This document shows positions 1 through 64,000 of a stretch of DNA of 64,000 nucleotides, piece after piece. The notes beneath the pieces are model-generated. The model did not search any database. It was not told the DNA's origin and saw only the letters and a program-made list of their open reading frames with translations. The position numbers and the translations under genes were made by a program. Position 1 is the stretch's first letter. Every line of letters starts with the position of its first letter. Origin of the DNA: Albugo candida (taxonomy: Eukaryota); contig JBDOQK010000006.1 of NCBI GenBank assembly GCA_040437565.1, positions 372,001-436,000 on the forward strand, read 5' to 3'.

Positions 1-1652
1 GTCTTAAAGACAGCTTCCATTTGTGAAGGATGGCGTATCGAGCAAGTGGAAGGGAAGACTGTTGAAGGATATAATTTGCAATCCCTCGCTTCTTTGATGA
101 GAAGCAGCTCTTCGGTAAGTTTTTGGTGCAAAAGGGCATAAGAATGAATTGATGATGCTGAGTTTCTAGATTGAAGTAGACTTTGAGATTTCTCAAAATC
201 AACAGCAGGATGAACGACAGGATAAAATACAAACAAACATGCTGTTGCTGGAACGTTATACAGGCTCACAATCGCAAAGCTATTTATCAGGATTTGGCAA
301 AGCCTCTTTGAGGCAACAATACATTCGATGCGTACCACCTGGTCCCGTCAATGTTTCAACAAAGACGATATCACCAGGTGTAGGAAAAAATAGTGAGGCA
401 CACCCGCCTGAAAGTAGTGCTTGCATCGGCGACCCAGCAATGGGAAGAAAAAGAGCTGATACTTCAGTTGCTCCCCAAGCAAAAGATAGCCATCCACAGA
501 AACAGATGAAAATGACCGTGTGGGCCAAGAGTTCCAACATGATGAAGGCCCAGCCATGCATAGATGCGAACAAAGAGACTCCACCACATCTTGAAGAACC
601 AAACGCATCAAGTTGTAAATCACAGCATCCGACCAATTCAATAAAAGTCGCACCTATTTGTCCCCAAACATCAGAGGAAGCGCCATCACGGAGCTCTTCA
701 TATGCTGTTCGTTCAGTTCCACACTCAAACAATGGTACATTGTAGCACGTTGTATACAAAATCGTTGACTCATTTGAATTTGTCAGCATCCAAGTCTGAT
801 GATCTTCGCTCTGAGCTATCAAGCCAAAAGCCCACTGGAGAATCGAATCGGCAGCGACACAGCCTGACTACTCGACGATTGACTGACATGGGCTTCGATA
901 AAACAGATGCAGTGGCGAGTATTGCCGCTTGTGGCGACGATCCAGAGAAATGTATGGTGTGGATTGCTGCGCAATTGGAAGAAAAGCAATTCATATCGGA
1001 CCTTAACCAAGCATCCATTCAATCAGAGCTCAGCAAACAAAAAGAGGCAGCATCTCTAAAGCATAAAGAGAAGGAACTTTATAAAAAAGCCCGAGTATTC
1101 ACCTCATTATTCCCAAATGTGCGTCAAGCCACCATCCGTTTTATGAGAACTCACGATTCTGGTGTAGTCCTATATTTTGAGCGATAGAGAATCCAATACA
1201 TTGAAGGAGGTCATTGATGAGCAAATTGGCCGAACGGACAGTGAGTGTCTTCTTCGGACGACGTTGACACGACTGCTGAAATTAGAAGCCCAAGCTATCA
1301 AATGGTACAAAGTCGCCGCACGCTGTTACCTTCTTCGGATTGCAGAGAATTTGGAAGGAATCTATATCGGTGTGTTGCACAGATTAAATAGCCAAATGCT
1401 GCTAGTATTTCTAACAATGTGTTTTGCGAAAATGTAGCTGAGAGTCACAGCGTCTTTGAGTGTTGCGGAAAAGCGACTTCACTGTCTGCGTGCACATTTG
1501 TCAAGTCGATACAAACTGAAGTTGAGCTGCTTCAAAACCATTTGTTTAATATGCCAAAGATTCATGGAGGGGTCCCCATGGCTTTTTTAGAAGCGGATGA
1601 ATCCACCAAATTCAATCTAGAGGATGATGGTTTTGAAGTGATCGACAAGTAA
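1..1652 (+). CDS. UBA-like domain protein, multi-exon, 5' end outside the window
   Basis: ORFs 239-745, 702-1187, 1177-1437 and 1419-1652 join through GT-AG introns (~115-170, 734-786, 1119-1167, ~1370-1437). UBA-like segment RLTDMGFDKTDAVASIAACGDDPEKCMVWI. Confidence 0.7.
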
Positions 1653-7979: not shown

Positions 7980-8165
7980 TGACAGACACAAATAGTATCC
8001 TTAAATAGTGTTGGAAACATTGTTTGATTGTGACCCACCACTTCCAATCCTTTAAGAACTCTGTTTTCTACAGCTTTTTGTTTGAAACTTTCGAGTGCTA
8101 ATTTACTGACTGCAGCAAAAGATATTAGCCGTGTGACCGCTACAAAAGCTTGACTTGATTCCCAC

Positions 8166-11100
8166 ATGGTAGCGAATGATGGAAATGCCGCTGTGAGCTT
8201 GTTTGGTCTAGAATCACGCGCAGATGATGATCGCTTATTGACACAGCCAAATGAGTTGTCACAGAGTCGAAAACGCTATGAAAAGGCTTTGGAAAAGGGA
8301 TTACAGAATGCTAAAGCGCAAGTGGATCAATTCTATCAGGAAGATAACAAATTCCCAGATTTATATGATCGATTACTGAATCAAACTGAACCGCAAAATT
8401 ATTTTTTTGAGCCGTATGTCACACAATGGCGACCACAAATTGTCAAAAGAGGTAGTCTAGTTACTTATCCATCGGTGGTAGCATCCTCGATTGAGGAAAC
8501 CAAGACGTTGACGCTATCAGGACTCTTAGAAGAGATCAGTCATGCGTGGACGTCCGTGGACAACCGATTATTTGTCTGGAATTACAGGAATCTGAAGCAA
8601 TTTGCCGCGTTGGAGTTTGACCAGGCTATAGTGGCTGTGAGCTTGTGCGAGTCGCCTGCATCTGGTATCTTTACTGAAAAAGTTCAGCATCTTCTGGTAG
8701 TCGCTACAACTGTAAATATATCGTTGGTGGCAGTATTATTCGACCCGTTTGTATCACCAGGATCTTCTGCTGGAAGTACAAGCCTCGCTCTAAAGTTACA
8801 GAGAACTAAACTTGGTGTGAGTACCGATAATTGCGTTGTACGCAGTATCGTGTGCACGCAGCATGGTAGGATATTTTTTGGTGGATCGGATGGCACACTA
8901 TACGAGCTCTGTTACGGTCCTGAAGGCACAAGCACTCCAGTAAAGGGTCTGTTGCCCTCCTTCTTTACAAGCTCTGACGCAACTCCTCGCTGTTCAAAAG
9001 TCGCTCACACGACAAATTACAGCAACTATTTACCGTCCTTTCTTGTAGGCTTTGCTGGATCACTTGACAAGATCCACCAAATAGCACTTGATAGCGAGCG
9101 AAATGTTTTATACGTACTTCACGATCAAGCTCATGTGGAAGTATTCGACCTCGGCCACAATGCGAAGGATTTGAAGCTGGTTTGTAGTTTGAATCTTTTA
9201 TCAGCAGGTACAAAATATGCTCGCGAGTACCGAAGAACGCGGGTGTCTTGCCCCGACGAGAAATTATTTCAGAAAGCCTCGACGGGAGATGCTACAACTA
9301 CTGATCCAGTCAAATTCATCTACATTTGCCCCGTTCCACGGAATGAATCGTTGTTTATCACACTGCTGGCCGTCACATCCAATGGATTACGGTGTTACCT
9401 GACAGTATACTCGAAATCTACCTACATTGCCAGTGCACTTGGATCCAGAGCCGACAATGAAAAAGCCAGTATTGTTCAAAACAAGCGACCGACAAGATTG
9501 GAGATGGTCTATATCCGCCTGCCCCCACCGGCAGTGGATGTTAACGACTCACCACCATACCACACCAAAGAAGGCATGCAACCCGGATTTGTGCCTGGTA
9601 AATCACCGTCACAGATTCATTCGGCGTATTATCGTGATGGCGTATTCTTAATCGCAAATGGTGGAAAAGACAAACAGGATCAATTTATCGGAATAGCGTA
9701 TGATGCAATCGCAACGACACTAAAATCAATCCATAAACCAGCTATACGCGAGTCCATATCACTGGATAATACGCTGGGAAAAGTTATCGAAATCAAAGGA
9801 TTCGGTGTAAACCAGCGGAAAATCTCATCCGTGTCAAGTGCAACTGGCTCCAACGATGGGATAAGCTCGGGATCAAAGAGGTCATTTGATACTATGGCAA
9901 AGGCTGGGAAAAGTACGAGTGGGAATGAAGTCATAATTGGAGAAATGACATCTCAATTTTCAGAACCACCTCGACATTTCATCACATTAACAAACGCTGG
10001 AATCCAACTATACCGAAAAATTCGACCCTTAGACCAGCTTCATCGAGTACTACTGATCTCAAAAGGAAGTGAATTGAAGCAAGTTCTTGCTCCATTTGTT
10101 CGATGTTTTGGGGAAACTGAGGTCTGCTCGATGCTTTTAGCAATTGCATGTGGCGTTCAAAGTGATTCGATCGAGGCCTACTCATCAGTCTCATCCGACA
10201 TGACACCATCACTAGCCAACGGGGTGATCGATGAGTACTTACATTCCGCTGCAATACAAGGAATATTTGATTGTGGTTTAGGATTGGCCAAGGTACGCAA
10301 GGCGAGTACTGCAAGGAAAAGCTCGGCAAACGAGAACGAACAACCATCATTCATCGCGTCTTCGGCTCGAGTGGTCCTCAAATCCGAATCTGAGATGTCA
10401 TATTATCACGATGCTCTCATTTTGTTTCTCAGTAGAGTCATGCGTCCATTGTGGCAAAACAAGGATGGGAAGTTGTCGACTGATAACTCAAACAACACAT
10501 GGGAAATGGTCTATGATATCAACAAACTCTGTGAGATTAGAGAAGTCTTATTCCAGTTGAGACAGTTGATGGAGAACACAGGACCATTCTCTGTAGCAGT
10601 TAGTTCAGGAGCAGCAAGTTTGGAGGCATCGGCTGTTCAGAAATCATTAGGGAAAAATGCACATGGTAGTGAAGCAGGCGAAACTAATATATCTCGTGTG
10701 AGCCAGCTGAGTGAGCGATTTGCAGAAACGCGTTCAGACGACCAATTGAAGCAGGAAAAACGATATAGAATGGAACAGCAGTCGCTGTATTTCCAATATC
10801 GCTTTGTATGTCGAAGCATTGAAGTGATATCCCTTTTGGATGTGTTGGACAAATACAAGTCGACTTCGAGTGAAAACCTTTTGACGTTCAACTTTGGTGA
10901 TCTTATAGCAAGCACAGAAGGGGTCGAAGTTGCTAGGGCTGCTATCAGGACATTGATGCAGTCGAATGAAAATGAGCAAAATGCACAGTTAATACAACAT
11001 CTTAGAGCGCAATGTCCATCGTTCTTTTCTGTACCAGATCTGTGGCAATATCAAGGATATAAGAGTTTATCGTCAGCGAAACTCAGCACAGCACCAAGCG

Positions 11101-51704: not shown

Positions 51705-54700
51705 ATGGCTGCCAGTGAAATGCAAATGTTCCCAACGGATAGCGCTTACTCTTTTCGACGGAAATTGGAACTGGTTGACAAAATATCGTATTTGACATGT
51801 GATAGAACCGATAAGTCGAGTAGGTTCATTGCAAGCGCAATGCATCCCGTGCGTCAATGGATCGCGGCAATCGATTCTTTGCATAATGGAGAATGTGTGG
51901 TTTGGAACTACAAAACACAAGAAGTCGTGTTCCGCTTCCAATTGAATGCATCCAATGACATGTATCAGGAGATGGATTATGAGGAAAGAGACTCTGATAT
52001 CGCTACTACAACTCTTCCCACCACACTCAATGTTTTATCGCCTTCAGCGCTTGCAAGACAAGCACTAGCCAAAACTACATCTCCTAATAGCTCATATTTG
52101 CGAGTATCTCGTAGATCCTCTTCTCTACAGCTTCTTTTTTACGACTTTGAAGTCATACAGGAGACAGCAAAGGTCCCTATCGAGCGTACTTGGCATAATG
52201 AGTGGCTTATTCTCATCGCTAACAGCCATATTATGACGTTCGACCTCAATCACAACGGATCGGTAGACTATTATGACACCTGCTACCTTTCCTTCTCTTA
52301 TCATTTCGGCCTCAGATGCGGAGACTGTCCTCAGACGAATTCCAAAAAAGTGAGCCGACATGTATCACAGTGTTACCGTGCGGAATGCTCGCAATTGGTA
52401 GCGTCAAGCGATTCAAATTGTAATCAAAGCTCATAAACTTTATTTAAGGATGTCAGGATGGAAGAATACGACTTTGGGATCCTCATATGTGGAAGATGTT
52501 GAGAGTTGTCGAAACAGGACTGACACGAGGTCTTTTCCATCGTTTTCAGAGTTGATATCGCGACTTATTTTGTGTCTTTAGAGCTACAGGATTTGAAGCT
52601 TTTGACGCCTATGAACAGCAGTAAACAATCTTCCGAACAAGAACGATTCGTTGCTGGGCTTTCAGTGGATGGAAAGCTCACGATATGGACCATTGTGCGC
52701 GCATTCAACTCCTGGGAATACGTCAAAGTCTCCGAATTAGAGCTCAAAGTATTTTCCTTCCGAATTGATAAGTACCCAATTCCAACGTTTGCATTTGAAG
52801 GAACTGACAAAGAGCTGGGAATCGACTTTTGGATTTGCTGAGATCAACGTCCATCACGCTCACGAAATGCTCACAATCTCGACAAAAGATGGGACGATTT
52901 ACGTCTTTGATGTTTTTCAATTATATCACGCCGCCAAACCGTAAGCCCATTTTCAAATTCGATGGAAAAGCATATAAAAGTCGATAGTGTGCTATTGATT
53001 GGAATTTTGCCGTCCGTGAAAGCGAATTTCATCGCTGTATTTGCCGGAGTCAAACGCGGGTCCTTCACGATCGCATCGATATCAAGTCTTCATTCCGGGG
53101 TACGAAGCCTTCTCAACTCCATCCGTGGGCCTACATGAGCGTTGTAGATCTCCTTCTCGGACATGATTGTGAAGGGGAGACTCTTTTTGCGAGAGAACAC
53201 CTCAAGCTACTATGAATATGCTTGTGGCCCGGGACACGAGTCGAAAGACCTCTCTACTTTGATTCCACAGGTACGTGAAGATGTAGGAGCGAGGACTTGA
53301 TCCAAGCTGATCTCCTTCTGCTAGTATCACTCCAAGAAGACAAAGATGATGTCACTAACCATAGGCTCAGAAACGAGGAATGAGATCGTTTGCATCGGCA
53401 CCACTTCTGGGCTTCTTGTACTGAAAGCCAGCTTTCTATCACCAAAGTGTGCCCCCATTCTGATTCCACGATCGATCGATAAAGTGCCTCTAATAGCTCT
53501 ACCGAGCAATGATCGTGTCTTGATTCGATTCCTGGAAGAAAGCGGTGTCGAGGGGAAGGATGAGTACAAAATGCAAGATACCGGGATGGAGACGGCTTTG
53601 GAAGCATGCAGGCAGCCCTATCTACAATCAAGTCTTTCGGATTCGACGTACTTGAGCGCTCTTCATCTCGGAGCAGCTCACGGAGAGATTCTTCAAATGG
53701 ACTCGGAGCTACGCAACCAAAAGTCTATCACACTGCACAAAGTCTTTTCGGGTAGTGCTACGTCGATCGCTTGGCATACAGCAATGAATCGCTTTGCTTT
53801 CGTGATGGTTTGTGCTCTGATTTGATTGTAATTCATGCAATCTCATACCTGACGTAGCCTCAAGAACAAAACGAGCAAAACTTGAAAAAACCCAGCAATG
53901 CACGTCGTCGCAACTTTATATTCGGACGAAATTCCAACTCTGATGACGCTGGGTCTCAGCGAAGTCTGCACAATATTCCTTCTCCTTCTTTGTTGGCGGT
54001 GTACGACATTGTTGGGGAAGCTCAAATTGAGCTCATCGATGACTCGTTCACGGCCGGAGACGGTCATATTCTTCATATTTTTTCTGGGCCTTTTCTCGGT
54101 CTCGTACGATATGAATTGGAAGACGTTCCTGGTAGTAATGATACCCTCCCTGACACGAAAAGCAGTGATTCAAGCCCCAATCTTTTCCGAAGAAAACGAC
54201 AGGAGTCAGGTCTGGGTGCGTTTTCCCCCACGCTGAAGGGAGCACAAACGCCTCCCAATTCGACAAATGTGGCAGCCACCGAGCAAAAGATAAAGAAGAC
54301 TTGGATCGAGTTTTACGAATGGGGAGCGAGATCCTCGGCTTCTTTCTCTCTTTGCAAAGTAGGCTCTTCGATCCCGTGCCCGATGGCGATTGCATGGGAG
54401 TCCAAGTCGAATCGATTCTGTGCCTTGCTGTATGATCGAAAGATTGTCATCTACAGCTTTCAGAGAATCGAGTCGAAGGACGAGGAATGCATGAAAAAAC
54501 TCCATGAGATCTCCATAGAGAAAGTTGTCTGCATGAAATGGATTCAGTACACGCTGTTCACGTTGACGACCTCTTCTGTGCACTGCTTCATCATGAGCAA
54601 AACCAGGTACTTTAGCTTCCAGCTTGCAAGCAACAGTGATGGAATTGGATCAGAGAGCACGCTGCCCCACAAAGACCTCGCCATCTTACAAAATATGGCG

Positions 54701-55637
54701 AAATTCGAGTTTCCAAAAGCTCAATACTTACCAAAGCAAATCGTGACCATTTTTGGAGTCAATAAAGAAAAGCTTCTTGTAGCCGATACATCAGCCAACG
54801 TCTATACAATCGATCTCACCAATCAGGTGGTGCAATGCTGCATCTATGTATCGAACGGCCTGCCTGTGGAGGCTCTAAAGACCTTGAAATGTCATATCAC
54901 CAGTGAGTCTGTGACCAAGTTTATCGCCAGTGTCATGGAGGTACCGACGACTTGTTAGCTCTCAAGACGGCTCCTTTGTCATGTCTGTTGTGAAGGGATT
55001 TGGATTCATAAGCGAAGCCCTTGCAGTTCCACGCCTTCCAATACGCTTTGCAACTGAGCTTTGTATAAAGGTATCGTATTTGTACTCTAAAAATTCCGCT
55101 GAGGAGAGTTTGTAGCACAATCGATTCGAAGAGCTTGTGGGTCTACTTGACAAAGTACAAATGGATTCTGACACTGTGATGGTAAGCCACGTCCAATGGA
55201 TGTTGATGCGTGCGTTTTCATAGCGACATGTGGCAGGGCACGTCGGTATTCCAGCGTGGATGTATCGCACTGTATCGTGCCGATCGACTTGAACCGCTGG
55301 AAGCCTTGCACGACAAAGCACAAGCTTCAGTATCTCGGCCAAAGGATACAATTTTCCTGGCTGCGATGCTCGGAGACCACAAAGTGCGTTCCCTTGATCG
55401 ATGGGAATTCGTAGAAACTGATAAGCGTTTGCGTAGAAACATCAGGACGCTCTTCTCGCACATGGAGATTTTGCTTTGGCAATGTATGCGGCCAAGGAAA
55501 AAGATCAAGACACATCTTTGATTTTGGAAAAGTGGAACGAGCATATGCAACTGCCTACAGCGTCTTGGAGAAGCCTACTCGATAAACTGCATCTTGATCC
55601 CGGGCATTCTTGGCTCAAATTGTCTTTGAAGGCATAG
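51705..55637 (+). CDS. WD40 plus alpha-solenoid protein similar to TSET/TPLATE-complex TTRAY2 (TWD40-2/TstF), multi-exon
   Basis: MHPVRQWIAA..VVWNYKTQEVVF, LLFYD, LILIANSHIMTFDL and DGRIRLWD..WKML parallel the TWD40-2 N-terminus as recalled. Helical C-terminus ends at TAG 55637. Confidence 0.6.
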
Positions 55638-55696
55638 GTACCTTGGGCTTTCATTAGCAATTGTGCTTGTGATAACTTTAGTGTAAATATCAAAAG

Positions 55697-58295
55697 TCAA
55701 TCGAAAGCTTGAAACTCGGCAAGTGGAGCGATCGAAGGTCTTCCGTGAGCACATTGGAACGGTAAGCTGCATCGGCTGAGCTCTGAGAGCAGATGTTGGC
55801 ATTGAGCATGCGAGAGCCATTCTCCAAACATGATGGCACTTCGACAGGCTCGAGATTTGATCAGACGAGTGATCATCGGTGGTCGTTGGTCGATCATTTG
55901 ATCCTCTTCCAAAAGATAATTCACAAACTCACGAAAATCCGATTCCGTCGCTATTCGTCCGTCAAAAATCGGGCTAGTCATTAGCTCCAAACGAGTTCCG
56001 TCGATGGATTCCCTCATTCGAAAATGACTCTTTTCATGGACAATTCTTTGGAATCGAAATCCCCACTCGTCCAGTGTCCTCTCATACACGTGTAAGGCTC
56101 GATCCTCTTGTGCATTCATCCAGAGCTTGATACCCGGAGAGTGCTGATATCGCTCGATATTTCTTTCCGTGCCGTCCATACCGAAGAGATCTTTCTCAAG
56201 CTTTTCTAGCTTTATACGCTCGTCAACTGCATGCTGATCAAACGCCATGATCACACAGATGTCTGTGTTGTCACCTGAAAGTTTCGTGCTCGCGAGAATG
56301 AATTTTCGATCCACTTGTCCAAGTACAGCTATATGATCGAAAATCCCTTTGGACACTTTACGAGGCTGAAGGATGTTTGGAAGGTGTATTACGCTCAAAT
56401 TTCGATCGACCGTATTGCAGGACTTTGATTTCTGACATTTTCGGTGTAATCGCTTTATTTTCTGACAGAGATCTCTGTCGATGGGAGCAAAGAGATCGTT
56501 CCTGATCTCGCTCTGATTCGTGATACAGCATCGATCGTTTTCATCGGTAAGTCTTTCTGCATGGTATCGTGCATTGCTAAAAGTACACGTAGTTGCCCGC
56601 ATTTTCTTTGTAGAGCGGAATGGCGGAAAAGTATCACTGGGAAATAGAACCTGATTCATTACACGCGACTTGAGTCGTGTCAATACATCGTTCCCCTCGT
56701 TCTTGGCGTAGCCCACGCTTTTCAAGCGCGATGCAGCCTCCACATTGGAAAGTGCTTCCGACTCGATCTCGATACGTCTTGACTTTTCTCGCCTCTCATC
56801 GGCTTTCAATGCGTGGAAACTCGGTCTTTTATGTCGTCTATAGCCAGTTGATGTGGCATTTGTTCCAAAAGTCGATTCACTTGAGAGAGAAATTTCTTTA
56901 AAAATCTTCGACTTGGAGAGCATTATCTGATACATCGACTCAGCGGTCTATTCAATCGATGAAAAATCACGAGTACCTTTGCAACTTGCGTCATGACTGC
57001 TTGGAAGGCGTCGTACGAAGCGAAAATCACATCGCGTTTCGTGTCCGTTTGCATCACATCGACAGCATTTCTTCCTGCTTGGATTGCCAACACAAACACC
57101 AGCAAGCCTATTACGCATACTCCGTTATACAATCAAACTCCACAATACATTGCCATACATCCATCGCATGTCAGCGCAATTTGCCTCGAAATCAGTTTGG
57201 ATACTTGAGCCTGGAAACTCGCATGAGGGCGATTGTTTAAAAACGCATATTGATAGCAAATTCGAGCGTGTTTGGTCGTCTGAACGATCTGCCAATTTCG
57301 AGAGGATACTCCCGTGATTGTGACTCCGAAGTAGCCGCAAACTGAGTACTCCGGTGTCGCGTAATGTAAATACTGCAATTTATTTGCAATAGCGGACCCA
57401 AATATTTGAGTTAATCGATCGATGTACTCATTGACTTTTTCGATGTGAAAAGTACCAATGCGATTGGAGTGAGGACTCGCTACATATATCATGAGTTCGG
57501 TATCACTCTCATTCTGCCGTACCGTTTTCGCATATGATTTCAAACGAGATTTTAGGCCAAATTAATGAGAGACACTTGAGAAAGTTGCGTATACGCGTGA
57601 GAGCGGATTGTTGGTATCGGCTTGTGCTCAGAAGCTTATGTCGAATGGGGAGTCTGGCAAATAGATTCCTCACCGAAATGGTCACTCCTGAGGTCAAACG
57701 ACGTGAGTTGGTGTCTCGAGCGTTGTAAACAACCTCAGTGTTCTAAGGGAGTAGCAATGGGTATAAGGAGGAAGACGGGATGGGAGTGGTCTCACGTCAA
57801 AGACTTTGCGATGCACAATCCATTCGTCTCGTGCTCGACTCTCAATTTCAACGTCCGCTACAGCTATCAGCGAGGCAAGGAATGTACCATGTGCTCCGTA
57901 GTACGCAGATGTATCGCGATTTTCAAATACTATTCACGATGAGTGCATGAGGTATTTCCCACTCTTGATCACCTACCGATTTCCTCTTGCATCAAAGTGA
58001 AGAGTGTATCGGCTTTAAGTCCATTTCCTAATCAAATGTAGATTCACGAGATGCAAGAGCACAGCTGAGATATCGTCTACCATTATCGATAACGGAGAAG
58101 CTCGCTTGGGGTAGATTGAGGTACAATTTGATCGCAGAAGCTTGTGCGTCAATGGCGTTATACACAGCTACACAGTGAGGTCATACACATGAGGTAATTA
58201 ACTGGAGTATTTTGCATACTCTCAATGATCGCGGTTACGAGATGAGGGATTCGATGGCACGGATGAATAAGGTTTTCATTCAAAGTTTTCTTCAT
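55697..58295 (-). CDS. MLH3: MutL homologue MLH3, multi-exon; 5' exons duplicated at 58466-59070
   Basis: C-terminal QVDRKFI, DQHAVDERIKLE, ACRSAIMFG and LPFQCAHGRPS. N-terminal GHKL segments NAIDAQAS, IDNG and GVTISVRNLF. Confidence 0.9.
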
Positions 58296-59352
58296 TCTTT
58301 GTATTGTAACGCAATCACTCTGTTGCTTACATTGCACATAGCATCAGCATAAATTTCAAACGCAANNNNNNNNNNNNNNNNNNNNNNNNNNNNNNNNNNN
58401 NNNNNNNNNNNNNNNNNNNNNNNNNNNNNNNNNNNNNNNNNNNNNNNNNNNNNNNNNNNNNNNNNGTATAAGGAGGAAGACGGGATGGGAGTGGTCTCAC
58501 GTCAAAGACTTTGCGATGCACAATCCATTCGTCTCGTGCTCGACTCTCAATTTCAACGTCCGCTACAGCTATCAGCGAGGCAAGGAATGTACCATGTGCT
58601 CCGTAGTACGCAGATGTATCGCGATTTTCAAATACTATTCACGATGAGTGCATGAGGTATTTCCCACTCTTGATCACCTACCGATTTCCTCTTGCATCAA
58701 AGTGAAGAGTGTATCGGCTTTAAGTCCATTTCCTAATCAAATGTAGATTCACGAGATGCAAGAGCACAGCTGAGATATCGTCTACCATTATCGATAACGG
58801 AGAAGCTCGCTTGGGGTAGATTGAGGTACAATTTGATCGCAGAAGCTTGTGCGTCAATGGCGTTATACACAGCTACACAGTGAGGTCATACACATGAGGT
58901 AATTAACTGGAGTATTTTGCATACTCTCAATGATCGCGGTTACGAGATGAGGGATTCGATGGCACGGATGAATAAGGTTTTCATTCAAAGTTTTCTTCAT
59001 TCTTTGTATTGTAACGCAATCACTCTGTTGCTTACATTGCACATAGCATCAGCATAAATTTCAAACGCAATCCTTTATTTTGCGTTACATAATGAGTTTA
59101 GTACATGATTTCAAGTACATAGATAGTACGATAAGGGAGTGGCCGTCAAGGCTCATGCAGAAAGTATAGGGGTGAGTAGGGTAGCCATGTATTGTTGCTG
59201 TTTGAATGGACATAAACAACGTACAGCAAATCGCGTACTCTACGACTAATACAAAACGACCATTTCACCAGTCGTAACGATCGAATACATTGCGTTGATT
59301 CCAACTTTATTTCACAAGCTCCGTCATTTGCCGGTTAAGTACAGTTTTTACG

Positions 59353-59913
59353 ATGAGTTCTCCTTCCGCTTTTTCGCTTACAAAGCACGAAGCCATGATG
59401 AAATGCCCATGGCAATGGCGACCTGCATTTCTGGACGAAAAACGCGAGAGTCGGAAACGCAAGGCTGGGGACGGGTGTCTTTACGATCCCGTTGATCCTA
59501 GTTTTGTGGATCATTTAGTGCCCGTGTATGCAAAGCGTTTTTGTTACAATGCTTTTGTGGAATCCGAAGAAAAAGAAAAAATTGAGAAAGAGATACAACG
59601 ATTAAGAACGCAACAAACCTTTGAGGCGCGTGGTGAGACGTCTGAGGACGCAGACGAGACCGGCGATTTGACGAAAAAGGAGCAACTCTCTCACACATTG
59701 AGTGGCGGAGGTTCAAAAGATATTAGTGAGGAGAATCTTGCTTTGGTTGACAGTATTATGGTAATGTCCAAAAGAGCAATGGAGAAGCAACACACACATC
59801 ACGCGACTTTGCATTTAGTATCAGACAATATTGAGGAAAATCATCTGGTCATTTGCGGAACGTTAGACTTTTCAATGGAATACATAACCGATACCGATAC
59901 CGTTAGCTATTAG
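59353..59913 (+). CDS. Hypothetical protein (~170-186 aa)
   Basis: Uninterrupted ORF with protein-like composition and a KRK NLS-like patch. No family recognised. Confidence 0.55.
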   Translation: MSSPSAFSLTKHEAMMKCPWQWRPAFLDEKRESRKRKAGDGCLYDPVDPSFVDHLVPVYAKRFCYNAFVESEEKEKIEKEIQRLRTQQTFEARGETSEDADETGDLTKKEQLSHTLSGGGSKDISEENLALVDSIMVMSKRAMEKQHTHHATLHLVSDNIEENHLVICGTLDFSMEYITDTDTVSY

Positions 59914-60017
59914 CGATTAGCCATTAGCCATTAGCGTCTTCTTTGCAGTTCATCATTGCCTCATTACGATATTTATACACGTATACTGTGACCAAGATTT
60001 GTGTGTAATGTAAAGAC

Positions 60018-62516
60018 TCAATTCCTCGGACTTGGAACTTGCCAAAATAATTTTCCTTCTACGACAAAGGGACGAAGTAAGCGCTGCGATACTAAGACGT
60101 CGAGTAAGAGCTCGATCTTTTCTGTGCTGTATATCGGGAAGTGAGATTGTAATTGCTCCACACACTACATATAGAGTGAGAAATGAGAAGATGGTGATGA
60201 GAAGAGATATTACGAATGCAGGCGTCCGTTCTTCCTCACACGTTCCATGAAATCTGCTGTATACGGCTGAAATCGCTACCGCTCCAGTTCCTTTCTGTGG
60301 CAACTACATGTTATATACTACAGACATCCAACATGCTTGTTACCTGAAAAGCATCTGGAAATAAGGACAGATCGAATGCAGCTGGGACTTCATGCGCACT
60401 GAAAAATTCTTCGTATTCTATTAATGCTGATTCCTGAGATTTTGTGCCAATGTCGAGACTTGCACCTACAATCCGATTAGAGAGCGGTGTTCGAGGCGTC
60501 ATTCCTTTCAATTTGGTCGAAACGAGCGGTGACGTCAATGTCGGCGTTGATAGGTCTTCACTCAAGTTGAGTTTGTTGGGTGTGGGTGTTTTCTGTTTCT
60601 TGTTTAGTGCTGAGGGCCTCAAAAGCGCTTCTGATTGTTTCCGAGTATCAAGTGACGTTTGTTGATGATTAGATCTTTCTTCTTTGCTGCTTTCCGGGCA
60701 ATGAACGACTTTCTTATCCGACACAGCACCCATATCGGCTTGGAAAGTTGCAAGTGTCGTCACAGTTGTGAAATTTGGAATTTCTGGTGTTTTGGGGCTT
60801 TGAGGTCCGACCTGTTGCACGGTGATTCCCTCAACCTCTCGGACTCTTGAGGGCTCCGGTGACATCTCAAAGGCGCCCAATTTCATCAGATTTTTATTGA
60901 TTGCTGGAGTTTCACCGATCAATTCTACGCTGCTGATATCGGACTTCTCCGTTCTGACTTCCAAGTTCTCTTCATCGATTTTCTAGAACGGATTCAAGTA
61001 ACAAAAACTTAAAATTTCTCCATATCAGTACCTTTAATTGCGTGTGTGGTGGCGAACTTAACATGGGCGTATGTTGGCTTGTATCATGTGATTCAGAGTG
61101 CTGTTTCTCGAATAAACTGTGTCGTTTGATGTACGGCGTTCTCCTCATTGAAGGGAGCTTATCACTATCGATACTGACATTTGTCAGAGTCTCTTGAACG
61201 GAGGTTTTGTACTCTTTCAGCTCANNNNNNNNNNNNNNNNNNNNNNNNNNNNNNNNNNNNNNNNNNNNNNNNNNNNNNNNNNNNNNNNNNNNNNNNNNNN
61301 NNNNNNNNNNNNNNNNNNNNNNNNTTCTATTAATGCTGATTCCTGAGATTTTGTGCCAATGTCGAGACTTGCACCTACAATCCGATTAGAGAGCGGTGTT
61401 CGAGGCGTCATTCCTTTCAATTTGGTCGAAACGAGCGGTGACGTCAATGTCGGCGTTGATAGGTCTTCACTCAAGTTGAGTTTGTTGGGTGTGGGTGTTT
61501 TCTGTTTCTTGTTTAGTGCTGAGGGCCTCAAAAGCGCTTCTGATTGTTTCCGAGTATCAAGTGACGTTTGTTGATGATTAGATCTTTCTTCTTTGCTGCT
61601 TTCCGGGCAATGAACGACTTTCTTATCCGACACAGCACCCATATCGGCTTGGAAAGTTGCAAGTGTCGTCACAGTTGTGAAATTTGGAATTTCTGGTGTT
61701 TTGGGGCTTTGAGGTCCGACCTGTTGCACGGTGATTCCCTCAACCTCTCGGACTCTTGAGGGCTCCGGTGACATCTCAAAGGCGCCCAATTTCATCAGAT
61801 TTTTATTGATTGCTGGAGTTTCACCGATCAATTCTACGCTGCTGATATCGGACTTCTCCGTTCTGACTTCCAAGTTCTCTTCATCGATTTTCTAGAACGG
61901 ATTCAAGTAACAAAAACTTAAAATTTCTCCATATCAGTACCTTTAATTGCGTGTGTGGTGGCGAACTTAACATGGGCGTATGTTGGCTTGTATCATGTGA
62001 TTCAGAGTGCTGTTTCTCGAATAAACTGTGTCGTTTGATGTACGGCGTTCTCCTCATTGAAGGGAGCTTATCACTATCGATACTGACATTTGTCAGAGTC
62101 TCTTGAACGGAGGTTTTGTACTCTTTCAGCTCACAGGTTTTGAGCGTGGGATGAAGTGTTTCCTGTCGTATTGCGTCTATTTCCACGTGCGTTACAGACT
62201 CGGTGAACGATATGTGGTGGGTTTCTATTTGAATGGTACTTGTATGTTGCTTCGTATCACTCGTCAGTCGAACGTGATCCTCCTGATCCTCAATGATAGT
62301 TTTTGGTTGATCCTCAATGGTAGTTTTCGGAATTAACATTTGGTTAAATAACGGACTCCAAATTTGCAATGATGAATGTATTTTACGCATTATTTGATGC
62401 TGTTTCCGAACTTTAGTGAGTATACGAGTGGCGCATCGATGGGAGGCGCAAATGTTCTCATCAATCTCTTGTAAGAGAAATGTGATGCGCTGCTGGATTG
62501 CGTCGTCATCCGTCAT
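60018..62516 (-). CDS. DASH/Dam1 complex subunit Ask1-like protein, multi-exon; middle duplicated across the gap
   Basis: N-terminal IQQRITFLLQEIDENICASHR..W..F matches the Ask1 domain pattern (EQxITLxLQEIDxN). S/TP-rich linker; spliced C-terminal domain ends at TGA 60018. Confidence 0.7.
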
Positions 62517-62660
62517 GGTTGGTATGAACTGTTATATAACATTATATCGACTGGGTGTCCACAACGTGTTGTAATATTTCACAATTCTATCATGCAATAT
62601 TGCGTTCGAAAGAGAAACTCTCAAGATCTTTTGATCATTCACGACTCAAAGTACAAGTTT

Positions 62661-63953
62661 ATGGAGAATTATGTGAGTGAAGAAACTATACGTCGTTTCT
62701 TACTTCGAGTCGGCTTTCGAGAATATACCGATCAAGTGGTAGCGTTAGTTCGGTCGTCCTTGCTTGCGTTTTTGAAAAAAGTAACACGGACCATACTCAT
62801 ACTTTCTAACCATTATAAATGTACAAGCATCCGATTGGTCGAAGTATTACAAGCATTAGACTTTCATCAAATCCGTCTTTATGGATTTGATGATGTTTGT
62901 GTTATTGATTGGCCACGAGGAAAGGAAACGATGCATATTACCGAGTTGGTCGAGCTAAAGACAATGCTCACGACACAATGCTGTGAGCCTGAAACGGAAT
63001 TGGGACCGGGAAGTTTTTATAACCGACCAGAATTTGTTAGTAATCTAAAAAGCTGGCCAGAGGATGAGGATGAGGATGAAGACGATGAAGAAAGTGAATG
63101 GTCGTGGACAAATAATACCTCCAGTGAGGACTCTGAAGATAGTGACGCGGAAATTGAGTCAGCTGATTCGGAAACAAGCCCTACTACTGACGGAATCACA
63201 CGGTGTAAGGATCAGAAGGAACGTTTGATGCAATCAATTGAAGCTGCTCAAATGAGATGCGACCAGGAATTGATATTACAGGCATCCGAAAGCTCTGTGG
63301 ATTATGAAGACACACCAATTGGACAGGGATACTTTTCCGATTACGACGATCAAAAACGTTCACAAAATTTAAGTGATTTCGAGGCTCATTTTGTAGAAGA
63401 AAGTTCCGGGTGGAAAATATCTGAAAACTCGAAAAAAATGGAAGACGAGTATGCCGAACGAATACTCAAATCGGAGAACGATCGCGTTGATGGAAATCAG
63501 TACCTGATGTCTCGTCAATGTTTCGCCGATCTGTTCAAAATGATATTGTGTCAGCACCGAACCGTTTCGTCAGCTGCACTTAGTGCCTTACACAACGCTA
63601 CCGAAGGCTACCTGCATCGCTGTCTGACAGAAGGACATTTGGGTGAGGAAATTAAATCCATTCTGCTCACAGATCAAGCCAAACATACAAGAAACATTGC
63701 GTCCATCCTACAGAATCAATTGGATGAAAAGAATGCCAAGGTAACTGAGCAAGAAGTCGTGATTGCGGAAATGAAATGTAAGCAAGAGGAATTACAAAAT
63801 CATATCTTACAGCTACAAAAATTGTTGTATGGGAAAGATGGTGGCAAAGAGAACGATAACCCCAACGCCGACTGCCGTTTCGATGGATCTAGTCTCGGTA
63901 AAACTCCTCCGTTACTTTCTTACAGACAAATACTAATACGTGGTGCGTTATGA
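62661..63953 (+). CDS. Histone-fold fusion protein: H4-like fold, acidic linker, partial H3-like fold, coiled coil
   Basis: VSEETIRRFLLRVG...FLKKVTRT...IRLYGF aligns with the H4 fold. LMSRQCFADLFKMIL..VSSAALSALHNATEGYL aligns with H3 alpha1-alpha2. ORF is open from 62592. Confidence 0.75.
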   Translation: MENYVSEETIRRFLLRVGFREYTDQVVALVRSSLLAFLKKVTRTILILSNHYKCTSIRLVEVLQALDFHQIRLYGFDDVCVIDWPRGKETMHITELVELKTMLTTQCCEPETELGPGSFYNRPEFVSNLKSWPEDEDEDEDDEESEWSWTNNTSSEDSEDSDAEIESADSETSPTTDGITRCKDQKERLMQSIEAAQMRCDQELILQASESSVDYEDTPIGQGYFSDYDDQKRSQNLSDFEAHFVEESSGWKISENSKKMEDEYAERILKSENDRVDGNQYLMSRQCFADLFKMILCQHRTVSSAALSALHNATEGYLHRCLTEGHLGEEIKSILLTDQAKHTRNIASILQNQLDEKNAKVTEQEVVIAEMKCKQEELQNHILQLQKLLYGKDGGKENDNPNADCRFDGSSLGKTPPLLSYRQILIRGAL

Positions 63954-64000
63954 ACAGGGAAACGAAAGAAGACTTTTGATCTGAAAAATACAAACGAAAT

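Follow-up and report, generated by a model that had tools for sequence, protein, structure and literature searches.

Does a single gene of the oomycete Albugo candida encode both an H4-like and an H3-like histone fold, and, if so, do the two halves pair with each other? The question is raised by an open reading frame near the end of a 64,000-nucleotide stretch of the genome (assembly GCA_040437565.1, contig JBDOQK010000006.1, positions 372,001 to 436,000; the whole stretch is referred to here as the window), in which an H4-type fold, a long acidic linker and an H3-type segment had been proposed from the letters alone. Giant viruses are the main known source of double folds in this order, H4 first and H3 second, and assemble nucleosome-like particles from them; the double folds described so far in cells (Sos, Spt3, ABTB2) lie far from H3 and H4.

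The borders of the gene had to be redrawn at both ends. Coding starts at the ATG at 62592 rather than at 62661, the start first proposed: it is the first ATG downstream of two contig 5′ ends (62557 in X2 and 62577 in X3), and the protein that it opens, MQYCVRKRN, matches the family N-terminus MEYRVRKR. Position 63953, taken at first for the end of the protein, is only the end of the raw reading frame. Contigs of X1, X2, X3 and X7 (all four runs examined) skip 60 nt with GT..AG borders at 63898-63957, which places the stop codon 63951-63953 inside an intron, so the gene runs past the end of the window. The X2 contig reaches 306 nt past base 64000, and the protein encoded here is longer than 449 aa. 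The gene is spliced and probably transcribed, the kinds of run behind the contigs having been guessed. We ruled out a gene-fusion artefact, as the reading frame is uninterrupted and spanned by single contigs and its architecture is kept in 37 homologues. For annotation, a protein without a Pfam family whose raw reading frame misleads at both ends is a reason for caution. The features of this gene and of its neighbor are as follows.

61892-61940, minus strand: intron of the Ask1-like gene, 49 nt (joint from 61891 to 61941, CT..AC on the plus strand).
61941..62516, minus strand: exon 1 of a DASH-complex Ask1-like gene (PF08655; contig ends 62524/62525).
62557..62591, plus strand: 5′ untranslated leader without an ATG (contig 5′ ends; sequence).
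62592..63897, plus strand: exon 1, 435 codons plus 1 base, from the true coding start (reading frame; N-terminus against the family; contigs without internal joints).
62592..62672, plus strand: N-terminal extension of 27 residues with a conserved basic motif and no H4 tail (family alignments A1 and A2).
62673..62888, plus strand: H4-like histone fold, with alpha1, L1, alpha2, L2, alpha3 and the terminal LYGF (phmmer, family profile, AF2, Foldseek).
62895..62954, plus strand: beta-hairpin and conserved H(V/I)TE(L/M)VE helix after the fold (AF2 strands 79-84 and 87-92, helix 93-98; alignments).
62958..63200, plus strand: acidic Ser-rich segment with an EDEDED repeat (63060-63079) and a conserved SEW motif (low model confidence; composition).
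63189..63287, plus strand: conserved helix with the motif S-L-x-x-A-Q-x-x-x-D, in long forms only (AF2 helix 177-209; invariant A196, Q197 and D201).
63321..63482, plus strand: module preceding the H3-like part, with a G-Q-G-Y-x-S-D motif, a helix, a beta-hairpin with E-D-x-x-W and an alphaN-like helix (alignment, AF2).
63513..63674, plus strand: H3-like alpha1 (residues 285-296), L1 (297-303) and alpha2 (304-338, with a kink at a conserved Gly) (AF2; PDB profile; predicted interface 282-338).
63636..63842, plus strand: long unbroken helix, residues 326-394, continuing alpha2 and a putative coiled coil (AF2 of P0001, pLDDT ~90).
63898..63957, plus strand: intron of 60 nt, phase 1, GT..AG, holding the in-frame TGA 63951-63953 (contig joint from 63896 to 63957).
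63958..64000, plus strand: start of exon 2, a basic tail opening with the family G-K-R-K motif (post-splice frame; family tail).

The neighboring reading frame, 61881-62516 on the minus strand, does encode an Ask1-like protein, as had been proposed: residues 7-59 match DASH_Ask1 (PF08655) at E 5e-7, scoring 30 bits where 20.7 is the cut-off. The head-to-head arrangement also stands, but with the start at 62592 the gap between the two start codons shrinks from the ~145 bp first given to 75 bp. The one feature that suggests a link to the kinetochore is the promoter region that the two genes have in common.

The protein belongs to a family that is oomycete-wide and apparently single-copy: we found 37 homologues, and all 28 of those that carry a name are from oomycetes. 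Three of them are short forms (Thraustotheca, Achlya and Aphanomyces). In the ESM Atlas we found only the family's own cluster, labeled 'Histone-fold' (55 members, Oomycota, score 0.82), and Pfam gave no credible family for the window protein, for 27 members, for 8 divergent members or for 20 C-terminal segments. Pattern scans with the family alignment produced 77 matches in metagenomes and 17 in IMG/VR, none of which was confirmed; two pattern scans of IMG/VR yielded no viral relative. Nor did we find a description of an oomycete H4-H3 family in the full-text literature or in two reviews.

Sequence and profile comparisons identify the N-terminal ~75 residues as a divergent but true relative of H4. 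The H4-type fold ending in LYGF was confirmed at 62673-62888 (residues 5-76, numbered from the ATG originally proposed) by phmmer against the PDB, by a family profile and by Foldseek. It aligns over its whole length and without gaps to H4 residues 29/30-100/101, up to and including LYGF, at 26-29% identity. With the single sequence, phmmer gave E values of 0.0088-0.07, the best 60 rows all being H4; the family profile A1 reached PDB H4 with an E value of 1.3e-7 (H4 residues 27/28-101), and the best 60 of its 108 matches were again all H4. AF2 predicts the three-helix geometry of a histone fold (helices 7-17, 24-51 and 59-68, pLDDT 81-95), and in Foldseek 68-79 columns of this model overlay H4 chains with rmsd 1.0-1.9 Å and TMt 0.69-0.91. 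The R-R pair that opens alpha1 of canonical H4 is invariant in the family. Unlike canonical H4, however, the family protein lacks the N-terminal tail, having a different, basic extension of 27 residues in its place; it is 450-530 aa long against ~100 aa; none of 27 family members matches Pfam Histone (PF00125); and the partner, which for H4 is H3/CENP-A, is predicted to be supplied in cis and without alpha3. Loop L2 of the window copy is mostly devoid of basic residues, with K-C-T opposite the K-R-K of H4; the family consensus is R-R-R.

For the second half, the AF2 model agrees with the original prediction in showing an H3-type alpha1-L1-alpha2 at 63513-63674 that passes into one long helix without alpha3. 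Helix 326-394 occupies the place of L2 and alpha3, and in the models of two family members the second half consists only of an alphaN-like helix, alpha1, L1 and alpha2, an incomplete histone fold. No block of the family is better conserved than this segment, in which A-L-S-A-L-H-N is unchanged in all 27 sequences. Profile searches, whose failure had been named as grounds for giving up the H3 assignment, gave matches that stay below threshold but lean consistently towards H3: a 66-column profile, A3, found 26 matches in the PDB at E<=10 (best E 0.17), of which 20 were H3, CENP-A/Cse4/CID or viral H4-H3 doublets, and those 20 place profile positions 3/8-43/51 on alpha1-L1-alpha2 of H3 (canonical H3 ~61-112) in a single register. 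A single-sequence search of the PDB with the segment returned no H3, its sole match being a Roadblock/LC7 chain (E 0.7), and Pfam Histone matched none of 20 C-terminal segments. The long helix matches coiled coils (VIA, Z ~7), and a crude heptad test gave weak periodicity (z 2.6 for the window protein, -0.9 to 2.6 over 36 sequences), so we treat the coiled coil as putative.

Between the two halves, the acidic D/E/S linker of ~200 aa is present much as described, but it is not only low-complexity sequence: it also carries conserved motifs and confidently modeled elements. The acidic part contains a (GAGGAT)3.3 tandem repeat at 63060-63079, in a segment with 40% D/E and 18% S, and AF2 confidence falls below pLDDT 50 at residues 100-120 and 135-180. 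The hairpin and H(V/I)TE(L/M)VE helix next to the H4-like fold belong to the long forms; the Saprolegniales short forms lack them. The module at 63321..63482 is kept in the short forms as well; its invariant residues are G221, Q222, G223, Y224, S226, D227, E247 and W251, and its helices (230-249 and 262-274) and strands (251-254 and 257-260) are modeled with pLDDT 84-91. Conserved aromatic residues stud the acidic linker. The ESM Atlas held no usable match for linker residues 78-282.

Do the halves pair? At the level of prediction, the C-terminal segment folds back onto the H4-like half in a classical histone handshake, to give a pseudodimer with the giant-virus H4-H3 doublet as its closest structural counterpart. 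For the window protein, whose AF2 model is of moderate quality (pLDDT 71, pTM 0.55), the best match in the PDB is 7n8n_A, named 'Histone H4-H3 doublet' (Melbournevirus), with Z 13.3 and rmsd 3.6 Å over 161 aligned residues (model range 1..339); the next seven matches, with Z 9.6-7.2, are all single chains with two histone folds. The same best match (Z 13.2, 160 aligned) came from the AF2 model built for the Thraustotheca short form (pLDDT 77.6, pTM 0.65); eight more two-fold chains rank next, single histones begin only at Z 5.5, and only 20 of 48,161 chains reach Z>=5. These two homologues are 29-30% identical and have linkers of unlike length. In BFVD, the best match is again the Melbournevirus H4-H3 doublet (E 5.9e-3). 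When residues 1-100 and 228-345 were given to ESMFold2 as two chains, the score was 0.64 in each of three runs, against 0.00 for the best of three controls; of 78 solved complexes 51 attain the mark for this test, as do 2 of 108 mismatched pairs, and for eukaryotes the figures are 39 of 65 for solved and 2 of 126 for unrelated pairs. The three runs had at least 67% of their contacts in common, with a partner pLDDT of at least 59 (~60), and the contact pattern is the one expected of a handshake: L2/alpha3 (57-63) with 302-310, and alpha2 (37-45) with 292-295 and 310-314. The structure matches and the two-chain test thus support the intramolecular H4/H3 mimic that had been proposed, with the proviso that AF2 and ESMFold2 may be repeating H3-H4 geometry memorized from solved structures and that a monomer model cannot separate cis from trans pairing.

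The most serious alternative is that pairing occurs in trans, the H4-like fold taking up either the H3-like segment of another molecule of the same protein (a domain swap by way of the long helix) or genuine H3/CENP-A, and the acidic linker serving as a built-in histone chaperone or decoy. In favor of this are the completeness of the H4-like fold, which is closest to real H4, next to an H3-like half without alpha3; a long helix that could join two chains; and a linker that is 40% acidic with conserved aromatics. There is also a precedent in yeast UAF, where, according to a preprint, the H4-like fold of Rrn5 is complexed with H3 (bioRxiv 10.1101/2022.02.10.479882); as described there, Rrn5 is likewise an H4 paralogue within a larger non-nucleosomal DNA-binding protein and pairs in trans with real H3. 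However, two predictors put the protein's own C-terminal segment at the H3 position, and it is this segment that the family conserves best, with A-L-S-A-L-H-N in 27 of 27 sequences. We regard trans pairing as unlikely, if worth keeping in mind.

It is also conceivable that only the N-terminal fold is related to histones and that the 'H3-like' segment is the start of a conserved coiled-coil stalk, its resemblance to H3 and its docking being artefacts. The H3 sequence match is not significant, alpha3 is absent and predictors are inclined to fill in a histone partner that they have memorized, all of which would fit; but an artefact sits poorly with 20 of 26 profile matches of H3 type in one register, with the same double-fold outcome from two homologues 29-30% identical whose linkers differ in length, and with three complex-test controls all at 0.00, and we consider this explanation improbable. 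That the protein is a highly diverged orthologue of a known subunit (Spt3/SUPT3H, a fused TAF6-TAF9-type pair or a CENP-T/W/S/X-type protein) we think very improbable indeed: Spt3 and SUPT3H chains are among the structure matches (Z 8.6/7.8 and 7.8/7.4), Bromo_TP is matched weakly (2 of 27 members, best E 0.021; P0048, E 0.01) and the kinetochore option has the Ask1-like gene 75 bp away start to start, but the TAF, TFIID-18kDa, CENP-T_C, CENP-S and CENP-X models of Pfam all stay below threshold in 27 + 8 members (no known TAF or CENP orthologue emerging from these 35), the best 60 of 108 profile matches are H4, and the viral doublet lies 3.7-5.4 Z units above Spt3. Among single-fold matches of the Thraustotheca model, H4 scored 5.5, TAF6 5.4, CENP-W 4.8, CENP-S/X 4.5 and TAF8/10 3.9 in Z, which amounts to a tie.

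Compared with known systems, the Marseilleviridae doublets (Melbournevirus 7n8n chain A and 9cvt chain C; Marseillevirus delta-gamma 7lv8) have the same order of halves and the same intramolecular pseudodimer in one chain, the latter only predicted for the oomycete protein; the H3 half of the viral doublet is also the top, non-significant, profile match of the oomycete C-terminal segment. In the viral protein, however, the H3 fold is complete, alpha3 included, the linker is short and nucleosome-like particles are formed, whereas the oomycete family is encoded by a cellular, intron-containing gene; its linker of ~110-200 aa is acidic and partly structured, alpha3 is missing, alpha2 is prolonged into a long helix and the protein has a basic tail. 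Spt3/SUPT3H, Sos, ABTB2/Cca3 and Methanopyrus HMk also hold two histone folds per chain with a long linker, and 6t9k_C and 7kts_I (which we take to be the Spt3 and SUPT3H chains), 1q9c_A and 1f1e_A are among the top structure matches. These cellular double folds reach Z 7.3-9.2 against 13 for the viral doublet, have two complete folds and are without sequence or Pfam similarity to the oomycete family; Pfam models for Spt3/SUPT3H-type halves (TFIID-18kDa/TAF13-like and TAF11-like) gave nothing at E<=1 in 27 + 8 members. Section 3.4 of a 2026 review of double histone folds (PMC13088155) lists, for eukaryotes, Sos, ABTB2/Cca3, Cca3S, SPT and high-identity H3-H4 fusions, and oomycetes have 0 occurrences in that review; in section 6 of an ACS Omega 2026 article, eukaryotic H3-H4 doublets are near-identical H3-H4 fusions in animals and not the oomycete family.

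The closest relative that we found outside the family is the H4-like half of P0050, a 282-aa metagenomic H4-then-H3 doublet (hhalign 96%, E 4.2e-9, 32% identity; BLASTP E 9e-8), which likewise has a linker rich in Ser/Thr and acidic residues. Its second half, in contrast, is a complete and clear H3 (Pfam Histone E 6.8e-19; PDB H3 E 7.5e-16) with no similarity to the oomycete C-terminal segment detectable by hhalign, the C-terminal profile giving nothing useful against P0050 (probability 0.5%). A homologue search from P0050 returned only P0050 itself. In a metagenome scan with P0050, loci L001 and L002 matched only its H3 half, at 32%.

The explanation that we favor, and hold to be probable, is that this is an oomycete-wide family with a cellular double histone fold, H4 then H3, used as a non-nucleosomal chromatin- or DNA-binding module. 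On this view the protein would be such a module and not a part of the nucleosome, and its function is probably that of a nuclear chromatin or DNA-binding module. In the mechanism that we envisage, the long helix would dimerize as a coiled coil and so join two pseudodimers, replacing the H3-H3′ four-helix bundle, which needs alpha3; the basic C-terminal tail may provide nuclear import or extra DNA contacts, and the acidic, aromatic-studded linker may shield the basic face of the fold or bind other histones until the module docks. A more specific proposal, which we put forward as a speculation and think doubtful, is that two coiled-coil-joined pseudodimers make up a lineage-specific oomycete non-nucleosomal particle, a mimic of the tetrasome without the H3-H3′ bundle in which the linker gates access to DNA. 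The role of such a particle would be to bind DNA, or to bridge it, at particular loci; the promoter region in common with the DASH Ask1-like gene makes centromeric or kinetochore chromatin one candidate.

What appears to be new here is an H4-H3 double fold, as predicted, in an oomycete-wide cellular family, the order of halves being one that otherwise comes mostly from giant viruses. The family may descend from an H4-H3 doublet domesticated from a giant virus, or cells may have reinvented such a doublet independently, and if the double fold is real, either origin bears directly on the debate over the source of viral histone doublets, adding a data point on gene exchange or convergence between these and cellular histones. 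With an H4-derived first half and a predicted stand-in for H3 that has lost alpha3 and gained a helix, the family would also be a natural experiment in the remodeling of the H3-H4 handshake. As the oomycetes include major pathogens of crops and fish, a lineage-restricted and probably nuclear protein of this kind is of interest for their chromatin biology.

The double-fold gene and its neighbour are arranged as follows.

62592-63953, + strand: raw ORF of the double-fold gene, 453 codons
63898-63957, + strand: intron of that gene, 60 nt, GT..AG, phase 1, containing an in-frame TGA
61881-62516, - strand: DASH Ask1-like gene

Both ends of the protein differ from the original prediction. The start proposed there, ATG 62661 (from which we count the residues of this protein, P0001), is internal; we place the true start at ATG 62592, because it gives an N-terminus, MQYCVRKRN, that matches the conserved MEYRVRKR in the family alignments and because it is the first ATG 3′ of both public contig 5′ ends (62557 and 62577). 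Nor does the protein end at 63953: the in-frame TGA lies within the 60 nt that are skipped by contigs of all four runs (two studies; two of the runs, X1 and X7, have contigs equal in length and depth and may be a single data set filed twice). The frame past this joint reads G-K-R-K-K, the start of the family’s basic tail, and the contig from run X2 runs on for 306 nt after base 64000, which puts the C-terminus outside the window. The same contigs skip 49 nt in the minus-strand neighbour (61892-61940, CT..AC on the + strand). The source runs are guessed to be RNA by kind; contigs that lack two canonical introns on opposite strands and stop at gene borders nevertheless have the look of transcript assemblies. 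The GAGGAT repeat at 63059-63095, which encodes an ED run, draws loose-ended pieces of unrelated contigs, and the spike in summed depth there is an effect of the repeat, not to be taken as expression.

The predicted head-to-head arrangement with an Ask1-like gene was correct as to the neighbour’s identity, but the start codons are 75 bp apart rather than about 145 bp, and the contig 5′ ends 32-52 bp apart. A kinetochore link through this neighbour is only a hint. With its 49-nt intron removed, the Ask1-like gene (61217-62516, - strand) continues in frame through a second exon into ORF 61217-61795, part of which is masked as a run of N; for this gene the X2 contig measures 2341 nt, and the transcript, or a merged contig, extends well past 61800. 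Farther away, a 412-aa ORF (55697-56935, - strand) matches PF08676, the MutL C-terminal dimerisation domain, at E 2.7e-7 and probably represents a single exon of a mismatch-repair gene of the MutL/PMS type; five further ORFs within 51705-60886 gave no Pfam match.

P0001 residues 5-76 align without gaps to H4 29/30-100/101, through the terminal LYGF. A single-sequence phmmer search of the PDB gave E values of 0.0088-0.07 with H4 in all of the best 60 rows, and a profile of 27 family members reached E 1.3e-7, with H4 in all of the best 60 of 108 matches. An AlphaFold2 model of P0001 built on the family alignment (mean pLDDT 71, pTM 0.55) has three histone-fold helices in this half (pLDDT 81-95), which Foldseek overlays on nucleosomal H4 chains over 68-79 columns (rmsd 1.0-1.9 Å, TMt 0.69-0.91); the E values, of about 0.1 only, reflect the 430-residue length of the query. 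Based on these matches and the modelled overlay, this half is a true H4 relative, as had been proposed. The protein is not a canonical H4: it has a different tail, is several times longer and, like all 27 family members scanned, has no Pfam Histone match.

The H3-like half is weak by sequence alone. A single-sequence PDB search with this segment found no H3, Pfam found nothing in the 20 C-terminal family segments, and hhalign found nothing in common with P0050, a metagenomic H4-then-H3 doublet. When 20 diverse family segments were combined into a 66-column profile, it gave 26 PDB matches at E<=10 (best E 0.17), and 20 of these were of H3 type: H3 itself, CENP-A/Cse4/CID, a trypanosome H3 variant, and the H3 portion of viral H4-H3 doublets. 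These matches, being related to one another, count as no more than a few independent observations, but all 20 share one register, profile positions 3/8-43/51 on H3 alpha1-L1-alpha2, which is not what chance would be expected to give. The AlphaFold2 model places the following elements in P0001.

262-274: alphaN-like helix
285-296: H3-like alpha1
301-302: H3-like L1 strand
304-323: H3-like alpha2, with a kink at a conserved glycine, then one helix to residue 394

L2 and alpha3 are absent from the model. The predicted alpha1-L1-alpha2 segment without an alpha3 agrees with the modelled elements and with the register of the profile matches; its sequence support stays below significance.

When the whole P0001 model was compared with 48,161 PDB representatives using VIA-align, the top match was 7n8n_A, the Melbournevirus H4-H3 doublet chain (Z 13.3, rmsd 3.6 Å, 161 aligned, model range 1..339). 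All seven chains at ranks 2-8 are single chains with two histone folds; from rank 9 onwards, the long helix was matched to coiled coils.

VIA-align matches of the P0001 model, ranks 2-8
H2A-H2B fusion: Z 9.6
Second Melbournevirus doublet: Z 9.2
SAGA core chain 6t9k_C: Z 8.6
Methanopyrus HMk: Z 8.3
Human SAGA chain 7kts_I: Z 7.8
Sos: Z 7.3
Thermus 1wwi: Z 7.2

We take 6t9k_C and 7kts_I to be Spt3 and SUPT3H, and 1wwi and 1r4v to be double folds. As a robustness test we folded P0046, the Thraustotheca short form, which shares 29-30% identity with the window protein and has a linker about 90 residues shorter (pLDDT 77.6, pTM 0.65). Again 7n8n_A came first (Z 13.2, 160 aligned), followed by eight more two-fold chains; the top single histone scored Z 5.5, among 20 chains at Z>=5. 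In a viral structure library the best match was also the Melbournevirus H4-H3 doublet (E 5.9e-3), with none reaching E 0.001.

ESMFold2, an independent method run without alignments on P0001 1-100 and 228-345 as separate chains, gave a two-chain score of 0.64 in all three runs versus 0.00 for the best of three controls, a result that does not distinguish cis from trans pairing and that, since H3-H4 complexes have been solved in large numbers, shows likeness and may reflect memory. In calibration, 51 of 78 solved complexes reached the mark used, as against 2 of 108 mismatched pairs; for eukaryotes the figures were 39 of 65 for solved pairs and 2 of 126 for unrelated ones. The runs had at least 67% of contacts in common, with partner pLDDT of at least 59. 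Confident contacts join the H4-like L2/alpha3 (57-63) to the H3-like L1/alpha2 start (302-310), and the H4-like mid-alpha2 (37-45) to 292-295 and 310-314; the H4-like alpha1/L1 (9-23) also lies within the confident interface, where we infer that it packs on the continuing helix (327-338). This predicted contact pattern is that of a histone handshake. Together, the two models and the ESMFold2 result favour the intramolecular H4/H3 mimic that had been suggested.

The region between the halves had been described as a D/E/S-rich linker. One low-confidence stretch is indeed 40% acidic and 18% serine and contains the ED repeat, but the region is not filler alone. A beta-hairpin and an H(V/I)TE(L/M)VE helix directly follow the H4-like fold; the linker also has a conserved helix and invariant G-Q-G-Y-x-S-D and E-D-x-x-W motifs, and a helix-hairpin-helix module is confidently modelled before the H3-like alpha1. 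In the short forms from Saprolegniales the earlier elements are missing, and the last module is kept.

A word-indexed search yielded 37 homologues, 30-38% identical, and all 28 that are named come from oomycetes (Pythium, Globisporangium, Phytophthora, Peronospora, Hyaloperonospora, Nothophytophthora, Plasmopara, Peronosclerospora and Bremia), with one distinct protein per species, strain variants aside. Nearly all are labelled hypothetical or uncharacterised, and one ‘Histone-fold’. P0026, a Phytophthora cinnamomi member, carries the name ‘Hippocampus abundant transcript 1 protein’, which does not suit the family; a merged gene model or a transferred annotation may be the cause. An exhaustive HMMER search of 1.84 billion representatives gave 17 matches at E<=0.001. 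Because three short forms occur in Thraustotheca, Achlya and Aphanomyces, the family is present in both major oomycete branches. The searched collections held no near-identical protein to the window’s copy.

The only match outside the family, P0050 (282 aa), is a true doublet with H4 ahead of H3 (Pfam Histone E 6.8e-19; PDB H3 E 7.5e-16). Its H4 half resembles the family’s (hhalign E 4.2e-9), whereas its H3 half is unlike the family’s C-terminal segment. P0050 has a Ser/Thr- and acid-rich linker and is a singleton in a collection of 5.8 billion proteins; two metagenome contigs, L001 and L002, each encode at 8001-8195 a stretch 32% identical to its H3 half (214-277).

Full-text literature searches found no account of the family in main texts. 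Neither oomycetes nor this architecture is mentioned in section 3.4 of a 2026 double-histone-fold review (PMC13088155), in part of a viral-histone review, or in part of section 6 of an ACS Omega paper that deals with H3-H4 fusions in eukaryotes. We take the family to be a new cellular variation on the known double histone folds, H4-then-H3 in order, whose H3 half, as modelled, is without alpha3 and joins a long helix.

The H3-H3′ four-helix bundle that underlies tetramers requires alpha2-alpha3. Given that a helix of about 70 residues stands in place of the H3-side alpha3, we propose that this helix would dimerise, keeping two pseudodimers together; this is the least secure step, given the weak heptad signal. 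The acidic linker, with its many aromatic residues, may cover a basic surface or bind other histones. Most basic residues opposite the H4 loop L2 are lost in the window’s copy, which disfavours nucleosome-like wrapping. In nucleosomes the R-R pair of H4 alpha1 and the first lysine of H3 alpha1 face DNA; in the family alignments the basic residues opposite the former are invariant, and the one opposite the latter shows conservation of at least 90%. This pattern and the basic tail together suggest that the family protein binds DNA or chromatin in the nucleus.
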